This document shows positions 10,546 through 39,382 of a stretch of 64,000 bases of DNA, in pieces. Where the stretch lies: positions 2,425-66,424 of the forward strand of contig CAYVMD010000006.1 in assembly GCA_964452465.1 (NCBI GenBank). Direction: 5' to 3'. Every line of letters starts with the position of its first letter. The stretch's first letter is position 1. Below the pieces are notes generated by a model, which worked only from the letters and a program-made list of their open reading frames with translations, did not search any database and was not told where the DNA came from. Both the position numbers and the translations under genes were made by a program. This stretch comes from an uncultured bacterium. Lineage in GTDB: Bacteria; Armatimonadota; JACIXR01.

Positions 10546-10576
10546 GAAAAGCCTCGTTTTCGAGGCTTTTCCTATC
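10541..10576. terminator. Bidirectional hairpin terminator between convergent genes
   Basis: Perfect 16-bp inverted repeat gataggaaaagcctcg-tttt-cgaggcttttcctatc overlapping the TAG stop of the 7552-10545 gene. It lies between convergent genes. Confidence 0.6.
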
Positions 10577-13956: not shown

Positions 13957-14754
13957 TCACTGCCCCATGATATCTCGACAGGAGAAGGCAAGGGAACCTC
14001 CCCTGCATTTGGAGCGCAACTGTTCTGCCTTATACCATTTAGCATGCCCATCTGCGAAGACCACATTTGAGCCCTCTGTATGGCGAGTCCATCTCCTCTT
14101 TGCCAACTCCAGGTCCGTTACTACGGGCGGGCATCCGCACTGCACACCGTCAAAGGGAACGCCCGTTGGCCAGTTGGCAAACGCCGCCTGGACATTTATG
14201 GCGTAATTTGCGTCGCCATAGTTGTTCACGAGCCTGGTAACGAAGGAGTCGGTTATCACCACCGTCTCCGAGGGCACGGCGATGGAAGCGAGGCGATAGG
14301 CGCCCGTTCTCCAACCTTGTCCCCACCAGATGCCAGCGAAGGGTGCTTCTTGTATACCTACATTGTAACCGTAATTGCAACGGAAGTTAGGCTGACCGTG
14401 TAGCCCCGGATAGCAGTTCGCCTTCCAGGTGTTATCCTGTTGGGAGCTGGGGCAAGAGAAGACCCCCGTGTTCTTCACATAGGGCATCAGTTGTTCGAAC
14501 CAATCCAGACCGGTGAATTGTCCATTCTTGCCCGCCCCGCAGGGGGTTTCCATGGTGGGGAGACATTCATCCCAATCCTGCGTGTACATCGCAAGCGCGG
14601 TCCCTATCTGTTTCACATTGCTCAGGCATGCTGTTTTCCTTGCTTGTTCCCTTGCTCGACTGAATACTGGGAAGAGGATAGCTGCCAGGATGGCGATAAT
14701 AGCTATCACCACCAGCAGCTCTATCAATGTGAAACCCTTCCTTTTCCCTATCAT
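13957..14754 (-). CDS. Prepilin-type N-terminal cleavage/methylation domain protein, DUF1559 (H-X9-DG) family (paralog 1)
   Basis: RBS AAGGAGGTG. N-terminus [31 protein letters not shown] is a class III signal (G|FTLIEL). C-terminal [16 protein letters not shown]9-DG motif. Confidence 0.8.
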
Positions 14755-14902
14755 CCTTATTTCACCTCCTTTCTTTTCGGTATTTGCCCCCGGATATCCA
14801 CTCTTTCCAGGGAGCCCAGAGACAGATTTCCCTGGTGGGTTTAGGGCAGGGGGAATGAATGCCCCTCTGCCCCAAGAATTCGTTCAATGGGCACCACCTC
14901 CC

Positions 14903-15913
14903 TTAACCAATTTGTATTACCCTCCTTATGGGGAGGCGTTTTTCTATCGTCCTTTTTTCCTTCCCTTCCATCATTTTGAAAAGCAACCCTCCTGCCCATA
15001 ATCCCAACTTATAAAGCGAGGTATTAAGGGCGAGGGAGGGAACCCCCGCGGAGAAATCGCCTGGCAATTTATCGAAATTCATAACCACCACCTTTTCTCT
15101 CCTTTCCATCTCTTTCTCCCTAACTGCTTGGCACACTCCCCGTATGTGTTCGCCCACCGCAACGAATATCGCGGAAGGGGGTTCCTTCAAGTTTAATAAT
15201 CTCAACGCTCCTCTGTATCCCTCCCTTTCGCCAAAGCCTTCCATCTTTACTATTAGATCTTCCTCCACCCCAATTCCTGCCTCTTTGAGTGCCCGTTCAT
15301 AGCCCTTATATCTTTCCCACATGAAGCTAGTTTCCAATCCGATCCCTATTAGACCTATTCTTTTATGCCCTCTCTCTATGAGGTATTTCGTTGCCAGATA
15401 TGCACCTCCCTCATTGTCATAATCCACTATCACCCCCTTGAATTTAGGGTGATAGCCAATCATAACTATTGGGATATTTAGAGCCTTCCATTTTTCTACT
15501 TCCTTGTCGTCCATCCTAACGGGTCCCAATGCTATAACTCCGTCCACGCGTCCTAAGACCTCCTCGATGGGAGGGAAGAAGCCCATCTTATCTCGTCTCG
15601 AGGCATTTAGGAAAAGGCTATATCCCTCCTTTCTTGCTTTATCCCAGATGCCCGCTAATATTTGAGCGGAAAGCAAACTGCTCAAATAGGCCGGGGAAGG
15701 GTAGGTGAAGAGGACGCCGATCACATAGGTTTTCCCCTTGGCTAATCCCCTCGCTAAGGGGTGGGGACGATAGCCAAGTTCCCGCGCTACCTGGATGATC
15801 CGCTCGCGGACCTTCGGTTGAACCCTCACCGTGGTTTTGCTGTTGTTCAAGACTTTAGAGACTACGGGCACCGATGTGCCTACGATCCTCGCTATTTCCT
15901 TTAATGTCGCCAT
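14903..15913 (-). CDS. LacI-family transcriptional regulator
   Basis: N-terminal HTH MATLKEIARIVGTSVPVVSKVLNN, then a periplasmic-binding-protein-like sugar-binding fold. RBS AAGGAG. Confidence 0.85.
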   Translation of the reverse strand: MATLKEIARIVGTSVPVVSKVLNNSKTTVRVQPKVRERIIQVARELGYRPHPLARGLAKGKTYVIGVLFTYPSPAYLSSLLSAQILAGIWDKARKEGYSLFLNASRRDKMGFFPPIEEVLGRVDGVIALGPVRMDDKEVEKWKALNIPIVMIGYHPKFKGVIVDYDNEGGAYLATKYLIERGHKRIGLIGIGLETSFMWERYKGYERALKEAGIGVEEDLIVKMEGFGEREGYRGALRLLNLKEPPSAIFVAVGEHIRGVCQAVREKEMERREKVVVMNFDKLPGDFSAGVPSLALNTSLYKLGLWAGGLLFKMMEGKEKRTIEKRLPIRRVIQIG

Positions 15914-15995
15914 CTATCCCGCTCCTTTTGATTAAGCGCTTAATCTACTTTCATTATGCTATACACCTAAAAATTAGTCAATACCTTTCAAGGCG

Positions 15996-16022
15996 ATTTT
16001 CTTTTTTGGGCTTAAAATTTTT
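15996..16022 (+). promoter_or_regulatory. Conserved AT-rich motif, copy A (TTTTCTTTTTTGGGCTTAAAATTTT)
   Basis: Near-identical to 17581-17608 (25 of 27 positions). Lies in the lacI upstream intergenic region. Confidence 0.4.
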
Positions 16023-16176
16023 GTGTGATGGAAAGAAAATTTATCAGGTGGTAGACCTTTTCAAATTGGTGCTTTGCTCTGGAGCCGGCATCTACTCCTC
16101 TTCTTATCCCTGTCCTTAATTTCTTCCCTTTCACAGTCTCGCAACTGCCCGTATCAGTGGTATCAAAGGTCCAGCC

Positions 16177-17487
16177 TTAAAGATTGAAGAAAGCCTTCGG
16201 GTTATTGAATAGCCAATCCTCTGCTACCTTTATGGCGGAGCTTTCCTCTATCCATCCCATCCTTATTAACTTGACCAAAGCTCTGGCGATGTTCTCCCTA
16301 CAGATTTTCAAGTGGGCTACGATGTGCTCCGGCATATCCCCAAAGTCTCCACCAAATCCGTTAATCTTTATATGAGGAGTTGTAATAAGGGCACGGGAGT
16401 ATAATTCCTCGCTATAAATAGGGTCGATTATATTTACCCAACAAAGATCTACATAAACATTGGGATAATTTTTGGCGAGGAAGAGTATTTCCCCCATATA
16501 GGGCCAATTACCGTGAAATAAATCGAACTTCACATTCTGATACAATTCCAGGATATGACTTAGCAATACAGCATTCGTCTTCTCTATTCGATTCCTTATC
16601 CCAGCCATGTGTCCTGTATGTATCTGCACTGGTAGGTCGAGCTCTCGCGCGAAATTCATGAATTGATGAAATAAGAAGTCGTCCAGGGGCTTAGCCTCCG
16701 GCCAGCCCAGCTGATTCCTCGGGTTGGAGAGTATCTTTTTGAATAACCGCTCTGCTTCGTATCTGGGAACGATTTCCAAATCTAAACTTCTATAATAGGC
16801 GCTTTGATCCTTTATACCAACAACTCCTCTCTCCTTTGCCTTCTTCAGCAGTTCGTATACTACCTCCAGGTAATCCTCCAGCGAGGTGATATATCTATCT
16901 ACAAGCGCTCCTACCGACTGAATGTAGTCAAAACTTCTCACATCCCGGTGGAACTGGGGCAAACCGAACACGAACCTTATCTTCTCATAATGCTCAAGTT
17001 CCCCATCGAGAAACTTTTTAAGAAGCTGGAAGCCCGGAAGGATATCGGGGTTGGAGATGATGTCGGAGAGCATGACCTTTATATTAGCTTTTTCCAGAAG
17101 GCGGTCGTAGTTCTCCCTGGTGGGGAGTATGACCTTGTCCCTTATTCTGAGGAGCGAGTCCAAAGAGATTTCTTCTTCGCCATAAATCTCCCTCATAATG
17201 ACCTTGGGCACCCTAGCGTAAGCGGTAAATTCCACCTTCTTCCAAAATCTCTCGAAGAGTTCCCACTTTCTCTCCGTTTCGATGTCGTTATTCAACAGAA
17301 AATCGAGTTCTTTTGGAGATATGCCCGCGGACAGCAAATCGCTGGGGAGATAACCTTGAATCAAGCTGGCTATGGGTTCCCTCCTCGCTACTTTTCCTTT
17401 AGGACCTAAGATGTGCTCGTGGCAATCTATTACCGGTAACTCTTCTATCTTGGCGAGTAACTCCCTTAAAAGAGCATCGCTATGCAT
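16177..17487 (-). CDS. Glucuronate isomerase (UxaC)-like amidohydrolase-superfamily protein
   Basis: Strong RBS GGGAGGTG. N-terminal PVIDCHEHI metal-binding motif. C-terminal WLFNNPKAFFNL resembles the UxaC C-terminus (ICFNNARDYF). Confidence 0.5.
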   Translation of the reverse strand: MHSDALLRELLAKIEELPVIDCHEHILGPKGKVARREPIASLIQGYLPSDLLSAGISPKELDFLLNNDIETERKWELFERFWKKVEFTAYARVPKVIMREIYGEEEISLDSLLRIRDKVILPTRENYDRLLEKANIKVMLSDIISNPDILPGFQLLKKFLDGELEHYEKIRFVFGLPQFHRDVRSFDYIQSVGALVDRYITSLEDYLEVVYELLKKAKERGVVGIKDQSAYYRSLDLEIVPRYEAERLFKKILSNPRNQLGWPEAKPLDDFLFHQFMNFARELDLPVQIHTGHMAGIRNRIEKTNAVLLSHILELYQNVKFDLFHGNWPYMGEILFLAKNYPNVYVDLCWVNIIDPIYSEELYSRALITTPHIKINGFGGDFGDMPEHIVAHLKICRENIARALVKLIRMGWIEESSAIKVAEDWLFNNPKAFFNL

Positions 17488-17580
17488 TTAAAACACCTCC
17501 CGCTAAAAGGGTTGTCTTCGTTCGACTTCTTGCGCCACCAAGGTTGACAGGCTGACGCTCTCATTATCAAATGTAACACA

Positions 17581-17608
17581 ATTTTTCTTTTTTGGGTCTA
17601 AAATTTTA
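17581..17608 (+). promoter_or_regulatory. Conserved AT-rich motif, copy B, with perfect palindrome CTAAAATTTTAG and a -10-like TAAAAT
   Basis: ATTTTTCTTTTTTGGGTCTAAAATTTTA lies 12 nt upstream of the 17620 start. The TAAAAT at 17599-17604 could serve as a -10 element. Confidence 0.4.
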
Positions 17609-17619
17609 GAATCAAGAGG

Positions 17620-19119
17620 ATGAAAATGAAGAAGGTGCTTATTTTCCTTTTCCTTGCTAACTTGTGCTTAGCCCAGCGGGTGGTCAAGAAGTGGGACCTC
17701 TGGGAGCTTTCCTTCTCCAACCCCCGAAATTATGCCAATCCATTCCAGGATGTTTCCTTGCTTGGGGAATTCACCCATGCTGCCTCTGGTAGGAAAATGC
17801 GGATATATGGTTTCTACGATGGGGATAACATCTGGAGGCTCCGCTTTATGCCGGATGAGGTTGGCGAATGGCGCTACGAAATCTACTTTTCCGATTCCTC
17901 CGCTAAGCGGTATCGAGGGAGCTTCAAGTGCGTAGCCTCCAATATAAAAGGACCGCTTCGTGTCAACCCCCGAAATCCCCTCTGGTTTTCTTATGCCGAT
18001 GGCACTCCCTTTTATCTCTTCGCCGCTGAGTTAGATGTTCATACTCTTCCTCCAGATGTATTGGAGAAAACTTTGGATTTCCTCCAGAAGTATCACTTCA
18101 ATGCTATAATGGGTCCCCATGTCGGAGGGCCCGGTGGGCTTCCTTGGCAGGAAATTAACGGCAAGATAGACTTCTCCCGCTACGATTTGAGCTTTTGGCG
18201 CCGTTTGGATGAGGTCCTTCTCGCTTTAAAAAGAAGGAACATGTTCCTATTCCCCTTTAGCATCTTCGGGGGGACGAACGAGGTTCCCAAGATGCCTCCT
18301 TCTCAATACGAGAATTTCATAAGGTATTGGACAGCCCGTTGGAGCGGATTCTACAATGCTACCTTCCAACCGACCTCCGAATGGGAAGAAGGATTTTCCT
18401 CCGAGGAGGTCCTCCGCATATTGGAACTCATAAAAAAGCACGATCCTTGGAAAAGGCTGTTAAGCATTCATTCCTGGGATTACAGCAAGAGGAACCCCCA
18501 AATATACAAGTCGCCATTTTACGATTACTTCACCCTACAGGATAAGTTAACCGATTGGAACTACGCCAAATATATAGAGGATCTCGAGGAAATCAGAGAG
18601 TGTGCTCCCAAGCCTATTTTTGCTCAGGAGTGTCTCTGGGAAGGTAATATCTATCAGAAGGAGGCAGGATTGGATGTCGACAACATGAGGAGGGCGGCGT
18701 GGACCATCGCCCTGAATGGAGGACATATCGGTTATGGCGACGAGGTTTCCCCTCCCCGCCAATGGGGTGGGGAGGAAACCTTCAGTGTGTATGGATTAAA
18801 GGTTAAGCCCCTGGGACTACTCTATCCCTATCTCAAATTCCTGTATGAAACGATGACCTCCATCCCCTGGTGGGAGATGGAACCTGCCCCTAAATTCGTT
18901 AAGGGTAAGAATGCCTCATGCCTAAAGGGAGACAAGGTCGTTGTGGTTTATCTCCCAGAGGGAAAAGATATTCAGTTGAACCTTCCAAGTGGGAAATATA
19001 AGGTAACCTGCCTTGACCCTGTAAATCGAAGAAGAATAAAGGAAGAGATAAGGAAATTCGAAGGAGCCATTTCCCTTTCCTACCCTGGGGAAGTAGTTTT
19101 GATATTCCAAAGGGTTTAG
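17620..19119 (+). CDS. Secreted putative glycoside hydrolase (DUF4038/GH140-like)
   Basis: Signal peptide MKMKKVLIFLFLANLCLA. Trp-rich TIM-barrel-like core. General resemblance to DUF5060+DUF4038 proteins; family assignment is tentative. Confidence 0.4.
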   Translation: MKMKKVLIFLFLANLCLAQRVVKKWDLWELSFSNPRNYANPFQDVSLLGEFTHAASGRKMRIYGFYDGDNIWRLRFMPDEVGEWRYEIYFSDSSAKRYRGSFKCVASNIKGPLRVNPRNPLWFSYADGTPFYLFAAELDVHTLPPDVLEKTLDFLQKYHFNAIMGPHVGGPGGLPWQEINGKIDFSRYDLSFWRRLDEVLLALKRRNMFLFPFSIFGGTNEVPKMPPSQYENFIRYWTARWSGFYNATFQPTSEWEEGFSSEEVLRILELIKKHDPWKRLLSIHSWDYSKRNPQIYKSPFYDYFTLQDKLTDWNYAKYIEDLEEIRECAPKPIFAQECLWEGNIYQKEAGLDVDNMRRAAWTIALNGGHIGYGDEVSPPRQWGGEETFSVYGLKVKPLGLLYPYLKFLYETMTSIPWWEMEPAPKFVKGKNASCLKGDKVVVVYLPEGKDIQLNLPSGKYKVTCLDPVNRRRIKEEIRKFEGAISLSYPGEVVLIFQRV

Positions 19120-19128
19120 AGTTTCTTA

Positions 19129-20154
19129 TTAAATAGGGAGGACTTTCCTTATTTCCTCGAAAATTTCCCTCCCAGCATCCTGGGGGCTTCTTCCCTCCCA
19201 CATCTTTATCTCCTTGAAACCCTCCCTTCTGATCCAGATCATCTGCCGGCGGGCGAAATGGCGGGTATTTCGCTTCATTATGTGGAGAGCTTCCTCCAGG
19301 CTCATTTCCCCCTTTAGATAAGCCATGATCTCCCGATAACCATGCCCCTGCATGGAGATGAAATCCTCCCTACACCCCATCTCCATCAATCTCCTCACCT
19401 CTTCTATGAAACCCTCTCTCACCATTCTCTCTGCTCTTTGGTCTATCCTTCTGTATAAAGCCTTTCTATCCCACACGAGGGCGAATTTTAAGGGGTGAAG
19501 GGGAGGCGCAGTGGTCGCTTTTTGTAAGGCGGACATGGGGGTTCCCGTCAGATAATAGATCTCCAAAGCCCTGATGATCCTTTTTATATCGTTCGGGTGT
19601 AACTCTTTCGCCCTCTCCGGATCTATTTCTTGTAGTTTCTTATAGAGGCTTCCCTTCGTTGTTCTTTCCTCCTCTAAAAGTTGTTGGCGCAAGGTGGGAG
19701 AAGCGGGGGGAGCGGGGAAAAGTCCCTTAAGGAGGGAATCTATGTAAAGCCTTGTGCCCCCCACCAAGAGGGGGATCTTCCCTTCCCGATGCATCTTTTC
19801 TATCAACGGGATGGCTAATTTCAAATAATCAGCGACGGTGAAGACCTCGGTGGGCTCTGCTATATCTATAAGATGGTGCTTTGTTCTTTCCCTTTGTTCC
19901 TTTGTGGGCTTAGCGGTGCCGATGTCCATATATTTATAAACGGCACGAGCATCGGCGGAGATTATCTCCGTGTTCATAAGAAGCGCCAATTCTATGCCTA
20001 CTTCCGTCTTCCCGGAGGCGGTGGGTCCCGTTAAAACTACTACAGGGATCGTGTCTTTCGCTTCTCCAATATCGCTTTCTCCACTTCCTCTATCTCCCAA
20101 AGAGGTGTGGAGAGCCCCGCCGTTATCCCTATCCTCTCCTTCCCCTTTAGCCAT
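19129..20154 (-). CDS. miaA: tRNA dimethylallyltransferase
   Basis: P-loop VVVLTGPTASGKT, and ADARAVYKYMDIGTAKP (the DSMQVY-type motif). ATG at 20154 has RBS AGGAGGTGAAGGAGGA; the longer ORF-track start at 20193 has no RBS. The N-terminus is Gly/Glu-rich and overlaps the ispH 3' end. Confidence 0.85.
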   Translation of the reverse strand: MAKGEGEDRDNGGALHTSLGDRGSGESDIGEAKDTIPVVVLTGPTASGKTEVGIELALLMNTEIISADARAVYKYMDIGTAKPTKEQRERTKHHLIDIAEPTEVFTVADYLKLAIPLIEKMHREGKIPLLVGGTRLYIDSLLKGLFPAPPASPTLRQQLLEEERTTKGSLYKKLQEIDPERAKELHPNDIKRIIRALEIYYLTGTPMSALQKATTAPPLHPLKFALVWDRKALYRRIDQRAERMVREGFIEEVRRLMEMGCREDFISMQGHGYREIMAYLKGEMSLEEALHIMKRNTRHFARRQMIWIRREGFKEIKMWEGRSPQDAGREIFEEIRKVLPI

Positions 20155-20888
20155 TCCTCCTTCACCTCCTCTCCCCTTTCCACGAGGTGGCATTCCACGC
20201 CTTCTCTCTCGCAGACCTCCTTCAATCGCAAGGTGTTGGCACTCCTCGCTCCTCCCACGATTATCATAAGCTCAACCATCTTGGTGAGTTTGCGGGAGGC
20301 TTCCTTGCGTTTTTCCACCTCGGGGCAGGAGGTATCGTGAATGACGAGGTTTCTCAGTTTTTCCTTCAAAAGCGAGGCGATCTCAAAGAAGTTTTCCCCT
20401 CCCTTCGTCGTTTGGCAGACGAGACCCGCTCCTTCCATCAGATCCAATCCATCTATATCCTTTGCGCTTTCTATCACTATCCCTTCTCCCTGGATATAGC
20501 CCAGGATCCCTTGCACTTCCGGATGGTTCCTATCGCCGAAGATGAGGACCTTTCTTCCCTGTTGGAAAAGTTGGAGGGCGGTCTCCTGTGCCCTCCTCAC
20601 CCTGGAGCAGGTGCAGTCTATCACCCTTATCCCCTTGTTTTTTGCTTCCTCTATAACTTTCGGATCTTCCCCATGGGCTCGAACGAGCATACAGGCGCCA
20701 GGGGGGATCTGTTCGATGCCCTCCACCACTCGCAAGCCCTTTTCCCGTAGCCTTTGCATCTCGCCGGCGTTGTGGATCAGATCGCCGATCACATAGACTT
20801 CCTTTTCCTGCTTTAAAGCCTCCTCCGCCCACCTTATTGCTCTCCTTACCCCGTAGCAAAAGCCCAGCGCTTGGGCTCGTTTAACCAT
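20040..20888 (-). CDS. ispH: 4-hydroxy-3-methylbut-2-enyl diphosphate reductase
   Basis: GFCYGVRRAI, HNAGEMQRL and the conserved Cys positions of the IspH/LytB family. The ATG overlaps the stop of the upstream polyprenyl synthase (ATGGTTAA). Confidence 0.85.
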   Translation of the reverse strand: MVKRAQALGFCYGVRRAIRWAEEALKQEKEVYVIGDLIHNAGEMQRLREKGLRVVEGIEQIPPGACMLVRAHGEDPKVIEEAKNKGIRVIDCTCSRVRRAQETALQLFQQGRKVLIFGDRNHPEVQGILGYIQGEGIVIESAKDIDGLDLMEGAGLVCQTTKGGENFFEIASLLKEKLRNLVIHDTSCPEVEKRKEASRKLTKMVELMIIVGGARSANTLRLKEVCEREGVECHLVERGEEVKEEWLKGKERIGITAGLSTPLWEIEEVEKAILEKRKTRSL

Positions 20889-21918
20889 CGTCACCGATCT
20901 TCAAAACCCTCCCGAAGAACCCTTCCAATTGTCTCAAAAAACCTTTATCGCCCTCCACCCGAGAGAGGTAGAAGATGGCATCGTCCCTATAGGATTCGCA
21001 TATCTCCATCGTGTAGCCTTTAGCTCCTACCTCCTCCAGGATCTCCAAGGCTTTATCTATGTCCTTCTTGGTCTTCCTTTTCTTCCGCAAGATCTCGCGC
21101 AATTCTTCCTTTCTCTCGCTTTTATTCAAAGCGAACACCACGGGAAAAGTTATCTTGCCCTTGTGGATATCCTCTGCTGGCTTGCCTATCTCCTCTGAAA
21201 TGCCCCAAATACCGAGGTAGTCGTCCTTTACCTGGAAGGCGAGCCCAAAGAACCTCCCGCATTTCCCCAACTTTTCTACCTCTTCTTCCCTGCCTGCTAA
21301 CACACCCGCTATTCGGCAGGCGTAATCGAAGAGGGCTCCCGTCTTTTTCCTCGCCATATCGAGGTAATCGCTGACCGTTCCCTCTGTGGCCTCCTGTAAG
21401 GCTAAATCCAAATATTGTCCCTCTGTCATCTCCTTTATGATGAGGGAGAGACTCTCCAGGATGTTGGTGACTATGTGGGGTGGAAAGTGTTCCCTCAATC
21501 TAAGAGCAGATAGGTTGACGAGCCCTTGCATGGAGGAACCGGCGTTGACCGCCTGAGGTATGCCCCATACCTTCCAAACCGTGGGGCGAAAGCGCCTTTT
21601 TATGTCTTTATCCTCGACATCATCGTGGATGAGGGAGAAGTTGTGGAGTAACTCCACCGCAGTGGCGGCGGGAATTGCCCTCTCCACATCTCCTCCCAGT
21701 GCTTTTACAAGAGCGAGGAGAAGGAGAGGTCTTATCCTCTTCCCTCCGTATCTCTTGCTCTCTTCCACAGGTAGCCATTCTCCCCTTTCGTCCTTCCACC
21801 CCAAGTGATAACGAAGCATATCATAGAGGGGAAGATCGAAGGGCTCCATAAAGGAGCGCATATCCTTCTCCACTGCCTGGAGGGTGTAGGATAGGAACTC
21901 CTCCAATCCTTCCGTCAT
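20881..21918 (-). CDS. Polyprenyl diphosphate synthase (trans-isoprenyl diphosphate synthase family)
   Basis: First DDxxD motif LIHDDVED and second motif FQVKDDYLG. RBS GGGAAGAGG is absent here; the start is in an ATGA overlap with the upstream leuA stop. Confidence 0.8.
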   Translation of the reverse strand: MTEGLEEFLSYTLQAVEKDMRSFMEPFDLPLYDMLRYHLGWKDERGEWLPVEESKRYGGKRIRPLLLLALVKALGGDVERAIPAATAVELLHNFSLIHDDVEDKDIKRRFRPTVWKVWGIPQAVNAGSSMQGLVNLSALRLREHFPPHIVTNILESLSLIIKEMTEGQYLDLALQEATEGTVSDYLDMARKKTGALFDYACRIAGVLAGREEEVEKLGKCGRFFGLAFQVKDDYLGIWGISEEIGKPAEDIHKGKITFPVVFALNKSERKEELREILRKKRKTKKDIDKALEILEEVGAKGYTMEICESYRDDAIFYLSRVEGDKGFLRQLEGFFGRVLKIGDDG

Positions 21919-23477: not shown

Positions 23478-23505
23478 GGTTAGCTCCTCCTATGTTTGTT
23501 TAGAA

Positions 23506-23534
23506 ATTTTAACAAAATGCAAATTATCTGGCAA
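23506..23534 (-). promoter_or_regulatory. Sigma70-like promoter for the leuA-ispH-miaA operon
   Basis: Minus-sense TTGCCA-17nt-TAAAAT about 30 nt upstream of the leuA ATG. Confidence 0.45.
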
Positions 23535-23587
23535 TTTTAAGGCTTCATAGAGGGCGGTATCTACCTCGAAGGGAAAAGCCACGGGGA

Positions 23588-24781: not shown

Positions 24782-24791
24782 AATAAAAAAA

Positions 24792-24866
24792 TGGAGCCGA
24801 CGGTGGGATTCGAACCCACGACCTGGTGATTACGAATCACCCGCTCTTCCACTGAGCTACATCGGC
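24792..24866 (-). tRNA. tRNA-Thr (anticodon CGU)
   Basis: Minus-sense GCCGATGTAGCTCAGTGGAAGAGCGGGTGATTCGTAATCACCAGGTCGTGGGTTCGAATCCCACCGTCGGCTCCA. Cloverleaf with a GGTTCGAATCC T-loop, anticodon loop TTCGTAA, and an encoded CCA. Confidence 0.85.
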
Positions 24867-24994
24867 TTCTATAAAATTATAACCAACAATTCGAACTGCG
24901 CAAATATTAGGACATGACCCCCTTCTTACATTTTCATAGAGAATTGAGTTAAAGACAAGCACGAGTCCAATATGTTATGGGATTTTACGCTCGC

Positions 24995-25023
24995 TTGACA
25001 TAGCCTTCCCTTCAGGGCATAAT
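24995..25023 (+). promoter_or_regulatory. Putative gyrB promoter (TTGACA-17-CATAAT) giving a near-leaderless mRNA
   Basis: -35 TTGACA at 24995-25000 and -10 CATAAT at 25018-25023. The gyrB ATG is at 25032 with no clear SD. Confidence 0.4.
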
Positions 25024-25025
25024 AA

Positions 25026-27508
<2,483 letters not shown>

Positions 27509-27571
27509 CCCCCTTTTTATCAGCGGTGGTTTTTCCCATGGGATTAATTAAAAAGAGAAGGAGGTGAGAAA

Positions 27572-27760
27572 ATGCCCATAATCACCGTGGAAGGACGTGC
27601 TCTTGACATAGAGAAGAAGCGGGAACTCGTAGCAAAGATAACCGAAATCGCTACCCAAATCTACAACCTGCCCAAGGAAACGATAACCGTGGTCATCAAG
27701 GAAAATCCCCCCGAGAACATAGGCGTTGGAGGGAAGTTGATCGTAGATCTCTCTAAATAA
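27572..27760 (+). CDS. 4-oxalocrotonate tautomerase family protein
   Basis: 62 aa beginning MPIITVE (Pro1 after Met). RBS AGGAGGTGAG. Confidence 0.75.
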   Translation: MPIITVEGRALDIEKKRELVAKITEIATQIYNLPKETITVVIKENPPENIGVGGKLIVDLSK

Positions 27761-27767
27761 AAAGGAC

Positions 27768-29429
27768 ATGCAATACCTCACCCTCTACCGTAAGTGGAGA
27801 CCCCGAATCTTCGAGGAAGTAGTGGGGCAAAGGCATGTTACCCAAACCCTCCAAAACGCTATAAGAAATGGTAACATAGCCCATGCGTATCTTTTCTGTG
27901 GACCACGAGGAACGGGGAAGACCACCACCGCTCGTATACTTGCCAAAGCCCTTAATTGCAGGGAAGGACCTACCCCAACCCCCTGCAACAAATGCGATAT
28001 ATGCGAGGCGATAACGGAAGGGAGGGCAATGGATGTCATAGAAATGGACGCTGCCTCCTCGACGAGCGTGGAGGATGTGCGCGATCTTAGGGAAAAGGCG
28101 AGATTGGCGCCCGCTCAGGCAAGGTATAAGTTTTACATAATAGACGAGGTGCATCGGTTATCTCGTTCTGCCTTCGACGCCTTGTTGAAAACATTGGAGG
28201 AGCCTCCCCAGAATGTGATCTTCATTCTTGCCACTACGGAACCCAATAGAGTTCCTCCAACCATCGTTTCCCGTTGTCAAAGATTCGATTTCCGAAGGGG
28301 AAGCGAGGAGGAAATAAAGGGATATCTGAGAAGGGTATGTGAGGGAGAGGGAATAGAAGCAGAGGATTCGGCGCTTTTTCTCGTTGCTTCTCAGGCGGAA
28401 GGGAGTTGGCGGGATGCCCTATCCTTGCTGGAGCAGGTCATCGCTTACGCAGGTAACCGCATAACCTCGGAGGATGTGAGGGAAGTTTTAGGGTTGGTGG
28501 AGGAGGAGGTGTTCTCCTCTCTAATTCGTTCCCTTTACCAGCAGAATCCCGTTTTGGGTATGCAACTCATAAAGGAGGTGTTGGAGGGGGGAAAGGATCC
28601 GCGGGATTTCCTGCGCGGGCTGGCGAAATATATGCGTGACCTCCTCTTCATCAAGATAGGAGCGGAGGAGCTCCTGGAGAGGGAGGGGGACAAATTGGAG
28701 AAAATGAGGGAGGAGGCAGAACCTTTACCGAATTCCTTCCTCATCCAGGCGATAGAAACAGTAACCGCAACGGAGAACAGGCTTCGGTTGTCTCCTTCTC
28801 CTCGCTTGCCCTTGGAGATAATGTATGTCCAACTTCTCCAATTGTTTCAGAGGACCCTCCAGCCCGCAAAAATAAAGCATGCCGCAAAAGAGGAGGCTCA
28901 GCCAATCCCTCCCGAGGTCGTTACTCAGCCTGTAGGCACTCCCCAACCTGCAGCGGTGGAAACCCCATCCCAACAGATGGTTCCACCCCAACTCGCCCAA
29001 CCTCAGCCATCTGCTCCTTCGGATAGTTCCTTAACCTTTCCTCAGTTGCTTGCTCAGTGGAGGAAGATCCTGAGTATCTTGCAGAGGGAATCCCCCCAAG
29101 TTTACTCCTTCCTCCAACACGCTACCCCCGTTTCCCTTGAGGGGGGTATTCTCACCTTTGGCTTTCCTCCCGAGAGGGAGTTTCTCAAGAAGAGATTCGA
29201 TAGCGATTCTTCTAAGCACAAGGTTCTCCTTAAGGCGATCCAGAAGTGTTTCCCCCAGGTTTCCCTAAAATTCCAAACCACCTTGGTAGAAGAGAAGGAG
29301 GGGAAAGAACCTGCTCCTCAACGGGAAGAACCGGAGGAGCTGGACGACAACCTGAGATTGCTTTTCTCCGTCTTCCCGGAGGCTAAAATTATAAAAAGAA
29401 ACGGAGGTCAGAGCGAAGGAAATGTTTAA
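27768..29429 (+). CDS. dnaX: DNA polymerase III subunit gamma/tau
   Basis: YRKWRPRIFEEVVGQ, the AAA+ P-loop GPRGTGKTT, and a zinc module CNKCDICE. Confidence 0.9.
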   Translation: MQYLTLYRKWRPRIFEEVVGQRHVTQTLQNAIRNGNIAHAYLFCGPRGTGKTTTARILAKALNCREGPTPTPCNKCDICEAITEGRAMDVIEMDAASSTSVEDVRDLREKARLAPAQARYKFYIIDEVHRLSRSAFDALLKTLEEPPQNVIFILATTEPNRVPPTIVSRCQRFDFRRGSEEEIKGYLRRVCEGEGIEAEDSALFLVASQAEGSWRDALSLLEQVIAYAGNRITSEDVREVLGLVEEEVFSSLIRSLYQQNPVLGMQLIKEVLEGGKDPRDFLRGLAKYMRDLLFIKIGAEELLEREGDKLEKMREEAEPLPNSFLIQAIETVTATENRLRLSPSPRLPLEIMYVQLLQLFQRTLQPAKIKHAAKEEAQPIPPEVVTQPVGTPQPAAVETPSQQMVPPQLAQPQPSAPSDSSLTFPQLLAQWRKILSILQRESPQVYSFLQHATPVSLEGGILTFGFPPEREFLKKRFDSDSSKHKVLLKAIQKCFPQVSLKFQTTLVEEKEGKEPAPQREEPEELDDNLRLLFSVFPEAKIIKRNGGQSEGNV

Positions 29430-29721
29430 ATCCTTAGAAAAACAATACAAAAAGTTGATGGAGGACCTTATGAAAGTTAATGAGGCGTTGGCGAATGAAA
29501 GGATCGAAGCCACAGCAGGAGGGGGTATGGTGAAGGCGGTTGTCTCAGGACAAGGCGAGGTCCTGGAGATAACCATCTCGCCCGAGGTCGTCGATCCTAA
29601 TGATGTGGAGATGCTACAGGACCTTGTTTTGTCCGCGGTGCGCTCCGCTCTCACTGAGGCAGCCAAGAGGAAAGAGCAGGCGCTCTCCCAAATAACCGGG
29701 GGGTTGTTGCCTCCCTTCTGA
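29422..29721 (+). CDS. ybaB: Nucleoid-associated protein YbaB/EbfC
   Basis: 99 aa YbaB fold (EATAGGGMVKAVVSGQGEVLEITI). Sits in the conserved dnaX-ybaB-recR synteny. Confidence 0.9.
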   Translation: MFKSLEKQYKKLMEDLMKVNEALANERIEATAGGGMVKAVVSGQGEVLEITISPEVVDPNDVEMLQDLVLSAVRSALTEAAKRKEQALSQITGGLLPPF

Positions 29722-29722
29722 T

Positions 29723-30316
29723 ATGCCCAGTAAAACCTTAAACAACTTGATCGGCGTGCTCTCTAAATTACCCGGAATAGGACCGAAGACCGCCACCCGC
29801 CTTGCCTTTTTCATCCTTAGAATGCCTACACAAGAAGCGGAAGAGTTAGCGGACGCTATAAGGAAGGTGAAAGAAGAAGTAAAAGTCTGTAGGGAATGTG
29901 GGAACTACGCCGATGAGGAGATCTGCGATATATGCTCTGATCAGAAGAGGGATAGATCGGTTCTCTGCGTGGTTGCCGATCCTCGAGATGTGATCGCCAT
30001 AGATAACACGCGAGAATATAGGGGGTTGTATCATGTCTTAGGGGGGGTGCTTTCGCCTTTGGATGGAGTGGGACCGGAGCAATTGCGGATAAGGGAACTA
30101 TTAGACAGATTGAAGGAAAGCGATGTAACAGAGGTGATAATCGCCCTCAGCCCCACAGTGGAGGGGGAGGCGACCGCAATTTATTTGGCTAAGTTAATCA
30201 AACCATTGGGAGTGAAGGTGACCCGCATCGCTCCCGGCATCCCTGTGGGAGGGGAGTTGGATTACGCCGATCCCGCTACGCTCATAAAATCGCTTGAGGG
30301 AAGGCGAGAAATTTAG
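29723..30316 (+). CDS. recR: Recombination protein RecR
   Basis: Helix-hairpin-helix N-terminus, C4 zinc finger CRECGNYADEEICDIC, and a Toprim domain. Confidence 0.9.
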   Translation: MPSKTLNNLIGVLSKLPGIGPKTATRLAFFILRMPTQEAEELADAIRKVKEEVKVCRECGNYADEEICDICSDQKRDRSVLCVVADPRDVIAIDNTREYRGLYHVLGGVLSPLDGVGPEQLRIRELLDRLKESDVTEVIIALSPTVEGEATAIYLAKLIKPLGVKVTRIAPGIPVGGELDYADPATLIKSLEGRREI

Positions 30317-30334
30317 TAGAATAGTCAAAAATTA

Positions 30335-30652
30335 TTGAGGAGGAAAAAAGAGATGGAAGATATTAACGCCAAGAAGGAGAAGATAATGGAAAATTTGAAG
30401 GAGGTGCGGGATCCCGAGCTGGGTTTTCCCATCGTCGATGCGGGATTGATAGATGAAATAGAGGTGGAAGGAAAGAAAGCGAGGATAACCTATCACCTTA
30501 CCGCTCCCTTTTGTCCCCCTCCCTTCGCCCTTTACATCGGGAAGCAGATAAAGGAGAAGACATTAGAGGTAGAGGGAGTGGAGGAAGTGGAAGTTACCCT
30601 CCGAGGGCATATAGCGGAAGAGGAAATAAACCAGATGTTGAGGGAAGAGTAA
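30335..30652 (+). CDS. DUF59 (MIP18/SufT-like) Fe-S cluster assembly domain protein
   Basis: LKEVRDPELGFPIVDAGLI...ITYHLTAPFCP is the characteristic DUF59 motif with its conserved Cys. Confidence 0.7.
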   Translation: MRRKKEMEDINAKKEKIMENLKEVRDPELGFPIVDAGLIDEIEVEGKKARITYHLTAPFCPPPFALYIGKQIKEKTLEVEGVEEVEVTLRGHIAEEEINQMLREE

Positions 30653-30688
30653 GAAGGTAGAGGATTTTAGGCGTTGCCTTGAAACTCT

Positions 30689-31117
30689 TTATTTGGGTGG
30701 AAGAGGGGTTACTTTTGGATGGCGGTGGGAGATGAGGAGAAGCTGTATCAGGTAATAGGAGCCGAGGAAGCGGGGGAGGGTGAGGAGGATCTTCCAAGGT
30801 AAGGGGGAGGCATGTGCCCAAGAGGCGTGGAGGGAGATGGCGAGCATCAAAACACCGAAGGCGAGGAGGAATGCCCCGATGGTTCCAAAGAAGCGTTTCC
30901 AGTCCCTCGTCTTTCGGAAGTAATCCAGTATCTCGTAGAAGATAAGGGCGCCTAATAGAAGGAAAAGCACTCCTACCCCTTCCAACCCCATCCTTGTGAA
31001 GGCATCCGCAAGGGGGAAAATAGCGAGGCTTAGGATCCTCCACCACCCTTTAAAACCGATGGGAGGAGGAACCTCGACGGTTTGCTTTTTTGCCTCTTTG
31101 TCCTTTTTCTGCTTCAT
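30689..31117 (-). CDS. Hypothetical membrane protein
   Basis: 142 aa with 3 predicted TM helices and a Lys-rich N-terminus. No recognisable domain. Confidence 0.4.
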   Translation of the reverse strand: MKQKKDKEAKKQTVEVPPPIGFKGWWRILSLAIFPLADAFTRMGLEGVGVLFLLLGALIFYEILDYFRKTRDWKRFFGTIGAFLLAFGVLMLAISLHASWAHASPLPWKILLTLPRFLGSYYLIQLLLISHRHPKVTPLPPK

Positions 31118-31240
31118 GGCTTTTAATTTTCCCCTCTTCTCCTAGGGAAGTCAAGGGATAACATGCCATATGCCAAGAACAATTTCCCTTCAAAAAAATT
31201 TTTAATTTTTCGCCCCACCCCCTTGCCCAAAAAAACTTGT

Positions 31241-31249
31241 TGTTATAAT
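31241..31249 (+). promoter_or_regulatory. Extended -10 promoter element (TGtTATAAT) upstream of DUF1559 paralog 2, about 195-nt leader
   Basis: TGTTATAAT at 31241-31249, with TTGCCC as a -35-like element. The long 5' UTR contains hairpins (for example gcaggaagtgcccgccttcctgc). Confidence 0.35.
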
Positions 31250-31447
31250 TTTTATGAAGACCAATTCTCCCACAGAGGGTTGGTCCTCGTATCCTCTTAA
31301 AGAGGTGGTGATGTGATTTGAGGGTATTGAGTTGAAGCAGGAAGTGCCCGCCTTCCTGCTTAAAATGAAAGAAGGGTTGGCCCCTGACCCTTCAAAGAAG
31401 TGGGCTTGCAGGGGCGAAACTAAACAAAAGGAGGAGAAAGGGTAAAG

Positions 31448-32212
31448 ATGTTAAAGGGTAAAAGAGGGTTTACATTGATAGAGCTATTGGTGGTCATAGC
31501 TATCATCGCCATTCTCGCGGCGATACTCTTCCCAGTATTCAGCCGAGCAAGGGAACAGGCGAGGAAGACAGCTTGTCTCTCCAATATGAAGCAGATAGGA
31601 ATGGCGTTGGCTATGTATACCCAAGATTGGGATGAAACACTTCCCTTCTGGTGGTTCCGCTGCTGGGGTGGACCTAATGTAGGTGGCTTGTATTGGCATG
31701 AGCAGCTTATGCCCTATGTGAAGAACCTCGATGTTTTTAGATGCCCCAGTGCTAGTGTGGAATGGCAAGCTCCGTGTGGGTGTTATCCAGGCACTGTAGG
31801 TAGACCCCAGAATAACATAAGATGCAACTATGGTTATCATGACAACATGTTGGCCGGCAGTGACGGAATTAACAGGTTAGCCAGGCAAGCATCTCCAGCG
31901 GAAACAGTGGTAATAGCGGACGCTTTTGACAACTGGATGACTCCTTACGCACCGATGAGTGCAGGGGGGATAATTGCAAAGGTTGCTTTCGCTAATATCC
32001 CGGACAAGTTTAACACCCCAGGTTTTAGCTGCGGTTGCCCGCCTACAATTAGCTTGCCTCTCGATGTGGCCCTTGATAAGTGGGCTCGACACTCGGGAGG
32101 AGCAGTCCTCGTCTTTGCGGATGGACACGCGAAGTGGTATAAAGGCGACCAGATAAAATCTCGATGTCGGGGAGGCACCCTTCGCATAAGTTGTCCTGAT
32201 ATAAGACAGTAA
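31448..32212 (+). CDS. Prepilin-type N-terminal cleavage/methylation domain protein, DUF1559 (H-X9-DG) family (paralog 2)
   Basis: RBS AAGGAGGAG. N-terminus [32 protein letters not shown]-terminal [14 protein letters not shown] motif. About 55% identical to paralog 1. Confidence 0.8.
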
Positions 32213-32221
32213 ACGAAGCAA

Positions 32222-32245
32222 GGGGGGAGGCGAAAGCCTCCCCCC
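32222..32245 (+). terminator. GC-rich stem-loop 3' of DUF1559 paralog 2 (same hairpin as at 13919-13942)
   Basis: ggggggaggc-gaaa-gcctcccccc, 10 nt after the stop. Confidence 0.45.
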
Positions 32246-32381
32246 AATTTATAAAAAAGAAAATATATCTTAAAATGTAGCCCGCTGGAGGCTTTCCCAG
32301 CAGGGGGATAGAGGGATTTCCTTGACCTGGGTCTACTTTTCCTCTTAAATTCTTCGAAAATCCCTATAGGGAGGCGATTTT

Positions 32382-33362
32382 ATGCTTACTTCTGAGAAGG
32401 TCAAGGAATACGCTAAAAGACACGGAGCGGATATAGTGGGAGTGGGCTCCATGGATAGATTCGAGGGGGCGCCTAGAGAAATGGATCCAAGATATATCTT
32501 CCCCTCTGCGAAGGCGATCATTGGCTTCGGCTTCCGCATCCCCAGGGGTTGCTTTAGGGGAATAGAGGAGGGAACTTATTTCGCCGCTTATCCCTCTATG
32601 GGTTATTCCTTTATTAACCTGGTTTACGCCCCCATTGTGCTCTACGAAGTCTGCAAGATGCTCGAGGACGAAGGCTACGAGGCGACTCCCATCCAGAACA
32701 TGGTGATCGGCTCCTCGGTCGATATATTGAAGGGGCATAAAACTAATCTGAGCAGATCGGTTTCGCCCCACAAGCCTGCCCCCGATGTCCTTCTTCATTT
32801 TCGTATCTCCGCTGTTATCTGTGGGATGGGGGAGATCGGCTATAGCAAATTATTCCTCTCCCCTGAGTTCGGTCCTCGCCAGAGGCTGGCTTTCATCCTA
32901 ACCGATGCTCCCTTGGAGCCGGACCCCATCTTCGAGGGACAAATTTGCGATAAATGCATGAGGTGTGTAAGCGAGTGCTCGGGCAAGGCGATATCGGCTG
33001 CGGAAACGGTGAAGGTTAAAATCGCGGGGAGGGAATTCGAATGGGGGAAATTGGATGAGGAACGTTGTATGCTTGCTTATACGGGTGGTGCGAAAGAGAC
33101 CTCTCCTTTTCTTCCTCCCGATTATCCCTATGGGGATATCGAAAAGGTGGAAACAGGTGCAGGTTATGCCAATCCCGCCTTTCGGGAACTATGCAAAATA
33201 CCCTATAATGCTTCCTCCCTCAGCGTATTTCATCATCTTGGTGCTATAGAGGGGGCAAGGGGATGCATCCGTGCTTGTATGATGCACCTCGAGGAGACAG
33301 GCAGGATAAAGGCGAGGTTTAAGGAGCCTTTTAGAAAGAGTCGACCCTGGAGCCTCGTCTGA
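32382..33362 (+). CDS. Epoxyqueuosine reductase (QueG)-like Fe-S protein, divergent
   Basis: Own promoter TTGACC-17-TTAAAT and RBS AGGGAGG. DUF1730-like N-terminus, then CDKCMRCVSEC 4Fe-4S motif, aligning with B. subtilis QueG. The second ferredoxin motif is degenerate. Confidence 0.5.
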   Translation: MLTSEKVKEYAKRHGADIVGVGSMDRFEGAPREMDPRYIFPSAKAIIGFGFRIPRGCFRGIEEGTYFAAYPSMGYSFINLVYAPIVLYEVCKMLEDEGYEATPIQNMVIGSSVDILKGHKTNLSRSVSPHKPAPDVLLHFRISAVICGMGEIGYSKLFLSPEFGPRQRLAFILTDAPLEPDPIFEGQICDKCMRCVSECSGKAISAAETVKVKIAGREFEWGKLDEERCMLAYTGGAKETSPFLPPDYPYGDIEKVETGAGYANPAFRELCKIPYNASSLSVFHHLGAIEGARGCIRACMMHLEETGRIKARFKEPFRKSRPWSLV

Positions 33363-33399
33363 GTTATAATGGAGGAAATCTCCCCAAGGAGGGATCGTC

Positions 33400-34092
33400 A
33401 TGTCCGTGATACAGGAAGTAAAGCGAGTGTTCTACTTTAACCTATCCATGGGCTTCTGCCACGAAACCACCGCCACCGCAGCGGATGTAATCACCCGGTT
33501 AGGATGGCGTTCCCAGCCCCGTTTCATCACCACCGCCAGCGAGGACTGGAGGCTTATAACGCGGGATATTCTGAAGGATTACGATGCCCTCATTTTCTAC
33601 ACCACTGGCGAACTCCCCTTCACCGAGGAGCAGAAGAAGGCGCTCTTGGATTTCATCAAGGAAGGCAAGGGCTTCGTGGGGATCCATAGCGCGGTTGATA
33701 CCTTCTACCAGTGGTCGGAGTATGGGGAAATGATCGGTGGATACTTCAATGGGCACCCCTGGCATCAAAAGGTGAGGGTGATCGTTGAGGACAACACCCA
33801 TCCCGCTACAAGACATTTGGGGGGGACCTGGGAAGTGGTGGACGAGATATACCAGGTGAGGGATTGGTCGAGGGAGAAGGTGAAGGTACTAATGAGGTTG
33901 GATCCCGCCTCTGTGGATATCTCTAAGGGAGCAAGGGAAGATCAGGATTACGCCCTCGCTTGGTGCAAGACATACGGCAAAGGGCGAATCCTCTACACCG
34001 CCCTTGGACATCCCGTGGAACTTTGGTGGGATGAGAAGTTCCAACAGCATCTCCTCGGCGCCATCCTCTGGGCGATGGGGGTGCTCGAATAA
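33400..34092 (+). CDS. ThuA-like (trehalose utilisation) class-I glutamine amidotransferase-like protein
   Basis: [29 protein letters not shown]...[14 protein letters not shown] matches the ThuA family pattern. Confidence 0.7.
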
Positions 34093-34799
34093 TTAGGAAG
34101 GGCGGTTTCACCCTCTTAGAATTATTGGTCGTTATAGCTATTATCAGCATCCTTGCTTCCATCTTGTTTCCCATATTCAGCGAGGCAAGAGAGAGGGCAC
34201 GGCAATCGGTTTGCCTGAGCAACCTCAAGCAACTTTACCTCGCTTTTTCCATGTATCTACAGGATTACGACGAGTTCTTTCCCTGCAATAGCGATCCTTT
34301 CCTTTGGATGGGGAGAAACTGGCGACCGTTAATTTCCCCCTACATCAGGGGTATAAGGATCAAAAGTAACCCTTACGGCTACAAGGCGCCCATTCAAACC
34401 GAGCATTCCGATGTCTTCCTTTGTCCTTCCGATGTCCAGGCACCCGCGAAATGGGAGAGGACTTCCTATGGCTATTCCTTAGCCTTCTACCATTCTAAAT
34501 GGCAGGTGAATTCCATGAAGCAATGGACGGATGCGTTGAGGAGCGATATACCATCCATTCCTCAAACCCTCTCTTCCGTCCTTTACCCAGATAAAAAGGC
34601 TCTCCTGGGGGAATGGCTTTCCAATCATGAAAGGATAAAAGACGATAAAGGTTGGTGGTGTTATGAGGGAGCAAGGAATTTCCTCTTCGTGGATGGACAC
34701 TGCAAGTTCCTGCGGGCGAGCGAGCTTAGGCTTGCCAACGATGGCTATCCCGACATAAACCTTACCATTGATGGCATAGAGGGAAAAGATATAGAATGA
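34089..34799 (+). CDS. Prepilin-type DUF1559 (H-X9-DG) protein, paralog 3, with non-canonical ATA at the expected start (possible pseudogene)
   Basis: The frame is open from 34035 and reads IIRKGG|[24 protein letters not shown]. The ATG aligned with paralogs 1 and 2 is ATA at 34089-34091, overlapping the thuA stop (ATAA rather than ATGA). SD GGGGGTG is intact. C-terminal FVDGHCKFL motif. The ORF-track start is an internal TTG at 34125. Confidence 0.55.
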
Positions 34800-34815
34800 A
34801 AGGACGGGTGATTAG

Positions 34816-38289: not shown

Positions 38290-38315
38290 TTCCTCCGCTC
38301 CGGTTCGGGATCCCC

Positions 38316-39380: not shown

Positions 39381-39382
39381 CT

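Follow-up and report, generated by a model that had tools for sequence, protein, structure and literature searches.

Three prepilin-type DUF1559 proteins in an Armatimonadota-like locus and their partial association with sugar regulators and glycosidases

Few paralogous families without an assigned function are as large as DUF1559 in Planctomycetota and Verrucomicrobiota, and also in Armatimonadota, with tens of copies per genome. The 64-kb stretch of DNA analysed here, from contig CAYVMD010000006.1 of an uncultured bacterium and referred to below as the window, encodes three such proteins (P1, P2 and P3) in the neighbourhood of genes for carbohydrate-active enzymes, and raises the question of what a prepilin-type protein might do beside a secreted sugar-cleaving enzyme. 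A first-pass annotation, made from the sequence alone, had proposed that the three genes recur as the first genes of sugar or polysaccharide operons, and that they provide a pseudopilin-like module for the export, display or substrate capture of secreted glycoside hydrolases. Our analysis identifies P1-P3 firmly as ordinary members of DUF1559, prepilin-type and GspG-derived pseudopilin-like proteins; the window is ordinary for such genomes, and its three genes add members to a family already known. The link of DUF1559 genes to sugar regulators and glycosidases is, as judged from gene neighbourhoods, real but loose and partial. The three genes, with lengths in amino acids (aa), are:

13957..14754, minus strand: P1, a 265-aa prepilin-type DUF1559 / H-X9-DG protein
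31448..32212, plus strand: P2, a 254-aa prepilin-type DUF1559 / H-X9-DG protein, probably monocistronic
34092..34799, plus strand: P3, a prepilin-type DUF1559 protein of about 235 aa, of the W/F/Y-X9-DG subfamily, with a probable ATT start

A six-frame scan of the window found exactly three G-F-T-L-x-E prepilin motifs, those of P1-P3. The motif KG|FTLIELLVV is directly readable in the proteins: a short, basic leader ends in glycine and is followed by phenylalanine at +1, glutamate at +5 and the start of a hydrophobic helix of about 20 residues. The C-terminal motif FxDGHxKW/F is likewise common to P1, P2 and P3, and the near-identical signals and helices that had been described for the three, like this motif, are borne out by the translations. 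All three proteins pass TIGR02532 and the Pfam gathering scores for N_methyl (PF07963; 31.8-37.5 bits, gathering score 21.2 bits) and DUF1559/SBP_bac_10 (PF07596; 44.7, 43.6 and 33.1 bits for P1, P2 and P3, gathering score 23.3 bits), as their earlier assignment to this family had anticipated; the DUF1559 profile is aligned only at positions 2-66, 2-60 and 2-119 of its 268, respectively. The H-X9-DG label holds for two of them. P1 (26.0 bits) and P2 (22.4 bits) pass TIGR04294, the model for this motif, whereas P3 (16.7 bits) falls below its cutoff of 19 bits and reads Y-X9-DG, with a tyrosine (Y191, near window position 34662) in the place of the histidine. Among the 120 nearest homologues of P3 this position is tryptophan in 99 and phenylalanine in 14 (W/F in 113/120), while 117 of 120 P1 homologues keep the histidine; because the P3 subfamily carries Trp or Phe (Tyr in P3 itself) there, the histidine is not universally required in DUF1559 proteins.

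Sequence identity is 58.6% between P1 and P2 and about 36% between P3 and either of them. Profiles of the P1/P2 type and of the P3 type can be aligned over their whole length (hhalign E = 2.9e-55), which makes the three true paralogues of one family that comprises two subfamilies. Of 8000 scored word-sharing candidates, a single one failed to reach E <= 1e-10. Compared with the DUF1559/TIGR04294 proteins of Planctomycetota, Verrucomicrobiota, Lentisphaerota and Armatimonadota, which have the same domain pair, N-terminal helix and C-terminal DGH motif, P1 and P2 show no essential difference, and P3 stands apart as a member of the W/F/Y subfamily that scores below the TIGR04294 cutoff.

Beyond the generic signal, the best NCBIfam match of these proteins is to the major pseudopilin GspG (TIGR01710), at 38.6-40.7 bits over model positions 1-57/64 only, which lies below the equivalog cutoff of 88.85 bits. 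An hhalign comparison with PulG gave 97% probability over 65 columns spanning the leader, alpha-1 and the start of the head; this alignment serves as a lead, not a reference. The leader, the G|F site, E+5, P22, alpha-1 and the 'AL-MY--D---P' start of the head all align with GspG/PulG. The similarity ends at about residue 65, however, beyond which the head has roughly double the size and shows no sequence relationship. In context, too, the genes differ from those of GspG/PulG, as P1-P3 lie outside a gsp operon and have many paralogues per genome. Type IV pilins offer a second comparison; identity to Thermus thermophilus PilA4 (PDB 6xxd) is 13-14%, the P1-P3 head is much larger and, unlike type IV pilin genes, P1-P3 adjoin no pil genes.

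Structure prediction, which had been suggested as a check for a pilin-like fold, gave confident models for P1 (AlphaFold pLDDT 90.2, pTM 0.85; 60-sequence alignment) and P3 (pLDDT 93.7, pTM 0.87; 54-sequence alignment). In both, the predicted structure is a type IV pilin fold with a long N-terminal helix packed on an antiparallel beta-sheet, and the structural neighbours of the models were type IV pilins and pseudopilins only. A Foldseek search of the P1 model against the PDB returned nothing with E below 3. Because a profile search of PDB sequences matched pilin N-termini only, no DUF1559 head structure has been solved. The fold searches detected no lectin-like or carbohydrate-binding module (CBM)-like fold in the heads, and no periplasmic-binding-protein fold.

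The two parts of the proteins differ sharply in conservation. In the 60-sequence alignment, columns 8-31, within the alpha-1 helix, are invariant, as are Cys43, Cys101, Asp60, Asp62, His225, Asp235, Gly236 and His237. Alpha-1 as a whole is a 50-residue helix that is almost invariant across the family, and it carries a fast-diverging head of about 180-200 residues; a search with the head alone retrieved 1287 cluster representatives at E <= 1e-3 and 16 at E <= 1e-10, out of 1.84 billion. The pattern is one of an invariant assembly helix bearing a fast-diverging head.

Each paralogue has a genomic setting of its own. P1 belongs to a minus-strand unit with the following features, listed in the direction of transcription (distances in nucleotides, nt; MFE, minimum free energy):

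15981-15953, minus strand: promoter-like site upstream of the palindrome and of the lacI start
15930..15945, no strand assigned: candidate LacI operator, a perfect 16-bp palindrome, GATTAAGCGCTTAATC, and its only exact copy in the window
14903..15913, minus strand: lacI, LacI-family regulator (PF00356 LacI with Peripla_BP_3/1), 148 nt upstream of P1
13916..13945, minus strand: hairpin 3' of the P1 stop, with a 13-bp perfect, GC-rich stem; MFE -30.7 kcal/mol, z = -6.1
11628..13859, minus strand: 743-aa protein with a signal peptide, predicted to be secreted, 97 nt downstream of P1
10613..11626, minus strand: nucleoside-hydrolase-family protein (PF01156, E = 5e-48), after a 1-nt gap from the 743-aa gene
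10541..10576, minus strand: intrinsic-terminator-like hairpin with a 16-bp stem and a T-rich tail; MFE -31.4 kcal/mol, z = -10

The placement of P1 after a LacI regulator and ahead of a nucleoside hydrolase is confirmed by the Pfam matches to LacI and IU_nuc_hydro, and the terminator-like hairpin at 10541-10576 closes the unit formed by lacI, P1, the 743-aa gene and the hydrolase gene. The 148-nt gap between lacI and P1 contains no hairpin. The palindrome ahead of lacI is a candidate autoregulatory LacI operator; there was no second copy of it before P1, the 743-aa gene or the P2/P3 cluster, and matches with at most three mismatches occurred at chance level. The hairpin after P1 is followed by an A-run, not a T-run, and is probably an attenuator, a terminator without a U-tract or a stabiliser of the mRNA 3' end. 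The 743-aa product had been called a secreted hydrolase-like protein. Its signal peptide agrees with the first half of that description, but the protein has no Pfam match, its nearest NCBIfam model (alpha-D-galacturonidase) scores far below cutoff, and its resemblance to the N-terminal region of BPa0997 (PDB 6hzf) is limited to residues 63-192; we regard it as a predicted secreted protein of putative catalytic nature. The nucleoside-hydrolase-family protein next to it begins with a hydrophobic signal or anchor, an uncommon feature in the mostly cytoplasmic inosine-uridine family.

P3 is the third gene of a plus-strand unit whose other members are:

32382..33362, plus strand: 326-aa cytoplasmic Fe-S protein, weakly QueG/reductive-dehalogenase-like, first of the tight four-gene unit
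33400..34092, plus strand: ThuA-family protein (PF06283, E = 3e-53), whose TAA stop at 34090-34092 overlaps the probable P3 start
34816..38289, plus strand: 1157-aa GH123-family glycosidase, predicted to be secreted (PF13320 GH123_cat, PF22680), 16 nt after P3

The gaps within this unit are 37, -1 and 16 nt, and the gene order is kept in L086, a contig from a close relative. ThuA was recognised correctly in the first-pass annotation, and its two other descriptions hold in part. The QueG-like Fe-S protein has weak matches only, with Fer4_7 below cutoff and the reductive dehalogenase and QueG TIGRFAMs far below it. The 1157-aa protein, described as tandem-CBM and DUF4091-like, has a signal peptide and a CBM-like N-terminal region (the CBM_4_9 match is sub-threshold), but its family is GH123. 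A QueG/reductive-dehalogenase-like Fe-S gene adjoins a DUF1559 gene both in the window and beside a 69% identical P1 orthologue in another contig (L081 6647-7792).

The start of P3 required particular attention. All three open reading frames (ORFs) exist on the strands given earlier, but position 34089, previously taken as the first base of P3, is the start of an ATA codon. The P3 frame opens after a TGA at 34032-34034 and holds no ATG, GTG or TTG before a TTG at 34125, which lies inside the pilin helix. An ATT at 34092 shares its first base with the thuA stop (TAATT), and translation from this codon would give the leader M-R-K-G-G|F. The corresponding junction of L086, GAATAATAATTAGAGAGCACGGTTTC, likewise offers ATA/ATT codons only (window 34068-34130; L086 1840-1900). 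Ahead of the TTG, the segment coding for G-F-T-L-L-E-L differs by two substitutions, GAA to GAG and TTA to CTA, neither of which alters the amino acid. The automatic gene call of the L086 orthologue (P0121) is 223 aa long and is without the N_methyl domain. P3 thus likely starts at the conserved near-cognate ATT at 34092, and termination-reinitiation after thuA would be the simplest reading of that start.

P2 had been described as heading a run with the Fe-S protein, ThuA and P3, and this was not borne out. It is preceded by about 400 nt of non-coding DNA, including a perfect TATAAT at 31245-31250, and is followed by a hairpin of its own:

32222..32245, plus strand: hairpin 3' of the P2 stop, with a 10-bp perfect GC stem; MFE -26.1 kcal/mol, z = -5.2

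L086 is 93.6% identical to the window over 32330-43040 and is colinear with it only from 32330, past the P2 hairpin. P2 looks monocistronic because it has its own TATAAT and 3' hairpin and because synteny with L086 breaks right after it, and it is probably a separate, stand-alone module, in a position that seems to be a variable slot. Upstream of the break, L086 1-81 encodes a different DUF1559-like C-terminal fragment (..VRVAFANYDSSQWYIIPLKFPKPL*). Transcription from the TATAAT would give P2 a leader of about 190 nt, which contains several short hairpins and has no Rfam match. Rfam found no known RNA element in the untranslated regions, and its sole match in the window is one tRNA, the gene at 24795-24866 (minus strand) between an MFS transporter gene and gyrB.

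The hairpins after P1 and P2 share the identical stem GGGGGGAGGC/GCCTCCCCCC and differ in their loops. The window has no third copy of this stem, shuffled sequences never produced one, and neither hairpin is followed by a T-run. For the window, a genome-wide repeat was rejected as the source of the shared stem, as there are only two copies and both directly follow pilin stops. A shorter version of the stem follows a DUF1559 gene in another metagenome-assembled genome (MAG; L009 688-707).

The claim that the pilin-like genes come first in their operons is wrong for all three: P1 is second after lacI, P2 is apparently monocistronic and P3 takes the third of four places. The genes directly downstream of P1 and P3 do encode signal-peptide-bearing enzymes, of which the 743-aa protein is a putative one. 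About 7 of the 54 genes in the window are carbohydrate-active-enzyme-like, and because the window is already rich in such genes, adjacency within it is only marginally informative.

More can be learned from the relatives. The neighbourhood sample comprised the best 80 related Armatimonadota loci, up to eight of which came from a single MAG, and ORF calling on these gave 93 DUF1559 family members; the 110 control genes came from these loci too and lay no closer than three genes to a family member. Same-strand upstream neighbours of at least 150 aa (n=27) included five LacI-type (Peripla_BP_3) and two AraC-type regulators, and the LacI-type fraction of 5/27 compares with at most 1/110 among the controls (Fisher p = 0.001). 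Among the same-strand downstream neighbours (n=31) were three DUF4838 proteins and two each of alpha-L-fucosidase, GH123_N, GH2 and GHL6, whereas no glycosidase or LacI family had two or more members among the controls; the control families counted are the commonest ones, with at least two members each, so the glycosidase enrichment is one of family recurrence and not of full counts. Tight pairs, with gaps of at most 36 nt, join DUF1559 genes to genes for GH123_N (L004), DUF4838 (L023, and twice in L071) and ADP-ribosylglycohydrolase, and pairs at gaps up to about 52 nt involve a Kelch propeller, a phosphoesterase, an FAD oxidoreductase and leucyl-tRNA synthetase. The 69% identical P1 orthologue in L081 sits between the QueG-like gene and LacI-like, IU_nuc_hydro and GH129 genes. 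The recurring placement in sugar operons is therefore upheld in part, in the form of LacI-type genes upstream and glycosidase families downstream, but in contexts that are heterogeneous.

Two further loci are worth recording here. In L089/L090 (6815-9794) a P3-type homologue precedes the gene for a 662-aa DUF6785/DUF6784 membrane protein, which is followed by a GH43-like gene; this makes a further recurring partner of a different kind. In L004 (2400-3043; MAG-56) a DUF1559 gene lies 21 nt upstream of the gene for a 1112-aa GH123_N protein, and its reading is interrupted by a stop that ends the helix-coding region and by a shift of frame; this copy is either a pseudogene or an assembly error.

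Transcript ends were compared in the same loci. Over the 60 nt after the stop codon, the median MFE was -21.3 kcal/mol for family members and -15.0 kcal/mol for other genes, and values of -25 kcal/mol or lower were reached by 36% and 14% of them, respectively (Mann-Whitney p = 1.4e-6). Because 3' hairpins are stronger family-wide, many DUF1559 genes appear to be separate or attenuated transcription units, and many members probably give rise to separately terminated, abundant transcripts.

A prepilin-type protein requires a suitable envelope and an assembly system. The closest genomic relatives are all Armatimonadota MAGs (top, UBA1398, 56%), and by these matches the host chromosome is Armatimonadota-like and does not belong to the PVC (Planctomycetota-Verrucomicrobiota-Chlamydiota) lineages invoked earlier. 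An outer membrane containing lipopolysaccharide is probable for the host cell because the window encodes lpxK, a Kdo-transferase-family gene (Glycos_transf_N) and an ABC exporter (ABC_membrane/ABC_tran), the latter two of which we take to be kdtA and msbA. Phylogenomic work has reported a type II secretion system (T2SS) in Armatimonadetes (PMC6668835). Profile searches of the window proteins found no secretin, assembly ATPase, platform protein or prepilin peptidase in the 64 kb, in agreement with the earlier statement that pilus-assembly machinery is absent from the window.

Published work on this family and its likely counterparts provides some orientation. Planctopirus limnophila has 68 DUF1559 paralogues, two of which are essential (PMC10632474), and Rhodopirellula baltica has 74, some of them stress-responsive, which were called 'solute binding' from the Pfam name alone (PMC2754498). 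In our literature search the published mentions of DUF1559 assigned no function, and nothing useful was found on H-X9-DG, on prepilins in combination with Planctomycetes and polysaccharide, or on secretion or pili in Fervidibacter. The closest precedent is Verruconatronum alginivorum, in which a PulG-like pseudopilin (pgaptmp_000050) with 67 homologues in the genome is encoded in an alginate-induced utilisation cluster (AEM 2026, PMC13274419). A pseudopilin is among the few proteins over-expressed on alginate in this organism, and its authors suggest that a T2SS may export the lyases (PMC13274419). This bacterium belongs to a different phylum, and pgaptmp_000050 is likened to DUF1559 by description, not by sequence. 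Given this precedent, the idea of an export, display or substrate-capture module is not new (PMC13274419).

Against this background, the reading we prefer, and to which we give an even chance, is that the substrate induces P1 and P3, which would serve as subunits specific to their loci in a pseudopilus or short pilus; this structure would help the adjacent enzymes to cross, or stay at, the outer membrane. Coupling to sugar use appears to be supported by the operator-like palindrome, the overlap of the thuA stop with the ATT, the 16-nt gap to the GH123 gene, the synteny with L086 and the enrichment among neighbours. Under this reading, P1 would be transcribed together with lacI from a promoter overlapped by the LacI-type operator palindrome, and relief of repression by the cognate sugar would lead to the production of P1 and P3. 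The hairpin after P1 could lower read-through into the 743-aa and nucleoside-hydrolase-like genes or stabilise the pilin message, and would thereby set the ratio of pilin to enzyme. Ribosomes terminating at the thuA stop would reinitiate on P3, directly ahead of the gene for the secreted GH123 glycosidase. A prepilin peptidase encoded elsewhere would cleave P1-P3 at G|F and N-methylate the new N-terminus; the invariant helix would allow all paralogues to use one shared T2SS or type IV filament assembly platform, and the variable heads would be the exposed functional part.

Several observations weigh against this proposal. No assembly machinery lies nearby, and the filament itself is hypothetical. 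Strong hairpins follow P1, P2 and the family at large, and many members may be transcribed alone. Some of the closest relatives are found in contexts of a different kind: a 56% identical P1 orthologue has a divergent LacI gene, then hypothetical proteins and CRISPR genes, with no glycosidase; a 64% identical one adjoins an ArsR-type regulator in a context without glycosidases; and P3-type homologues (50-56%) lie among sulfur/thiamine or ilv genes, again without glycosidases. The glycosidase fraction of the controls is known only as families with at least two members. The two essential DUF1559 genes of Planctopirus are essential on laboratory medium, which misfits a purely polysaccharide-specific role (PMC10632474).

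These points could instead indicate that the neighbourhood is largely a coincidence, arising from a high-copy family in genomes rich in carbohydrate-active enzymes, and that the proteins have a general envelope or pilus role or provide variation against phages or predators. The abundance of carbohydrate-active-enzyme-like genes in the window, the heterogeneous contexts of homologues, the apparently monocistronic P2 with synteny broken just after it and the family-wide 3' hairpins all fit such a view, as do the frameshifted L004 copy, which suggests dispensability upstream of a GH123-like gene, and the Planctopirus paralogues reported to be essential without polysaccharide (PMC10632474). We nevertheless consider coincidence rather unlikely. 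LacI-type genes upstream of family members exceed their control frequency (5/27 versus no more than 1/110, p = 0.001), the same glycosidase families turn up repeatedly within 36 nt of family members (GH123_N, and DUF4838 three times), the P3 start overlaps the thuA stop within a conserved four-gene order, and in V. alginivorum a pseudopilin is over-expressed on alginate and a PulG-like member lies in an induced cluster (PMC13274419). An association with sugar regulators would also fit P1-P3 as adhesive pilins of true type IV pili, whose variable heads would bind glycans while the enzymes are co-regulated but secreted independently. Pilin-type cellulose-binding proteins occur in Ruminococcus albus, and pili-like fibres have been proposed for polysaccharide capture in Planctomycetes; large, fast-evolving heads would suit such a role, and strong 3' hairpins are typical of abundant structural subunits. 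This explanation seems doubtful to us, to about the same degree as coincidence, in view of the N-terminal 60 residues, which score best against GspG and align with PulG at 97% hhalign probability, of the heads, in which no lectin-like or CBM-like fold was detected, and of the tens of major-pilin-like paralogues per genome that would have to share one fibre.

A more distant possibility is that the proteins are not filament subunits at all, with the helix acting as an inner-membrane anchor for a head that binds or senses sugars or other solutes in the periplasm. The Pfam name SBP_bac_10 denotes a solute-binding family, a designation repeated in a 2009 paper (PMC2754498), an N_methyl protein adjoins an SSF transporter in L083, and the invariant D60, D62, H225, D235 and H237 could form a putative ligand or metal site. 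This is the least probable of the explanations that we considered, and quite improbable in itself: the fold search gave pilins only, transporter genes are not recurrent among the neighbours, and the extreme conservation of G-1, F+1, E+5 and alpha-1 fits filament assembly and exceeds what a simple anchor would need.

The preferred reading of P1 and P3 as subunits of a substrate-induced pseudopilus can be extended to the family. In Armatimonadota and PVC bacteria, DUF1559 proteins might be employed as one pilin per locus, each sugar-regulated paralogue being an adaptor subunit, specific for a cargo or a glycan, within a T2SS-type pseudopilus common to all, and recruiting, exporting or tethering the adjacent glycosidase; in this general form the idea is speculative, and we regard it as unlikely. 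If true, such adaptors would be the functional counterpart of the locus-specific SusD-like proteins of Bacteroidota. The support that the window adds is circumstantial, consisting of a unit apparently under LacI control, the probable translational coupling of P3 into a GH123 operon and the statistics on neighbourhoods, and it makes the question slightly more testable. Should the paralogues prove to be induced with, and needed for, adjacent secreted glycosidases, the expansion of the family would be explained, and it would become apparent how polysaccharide degraders without Sus-type systems organise enzyme export or substrate capture.

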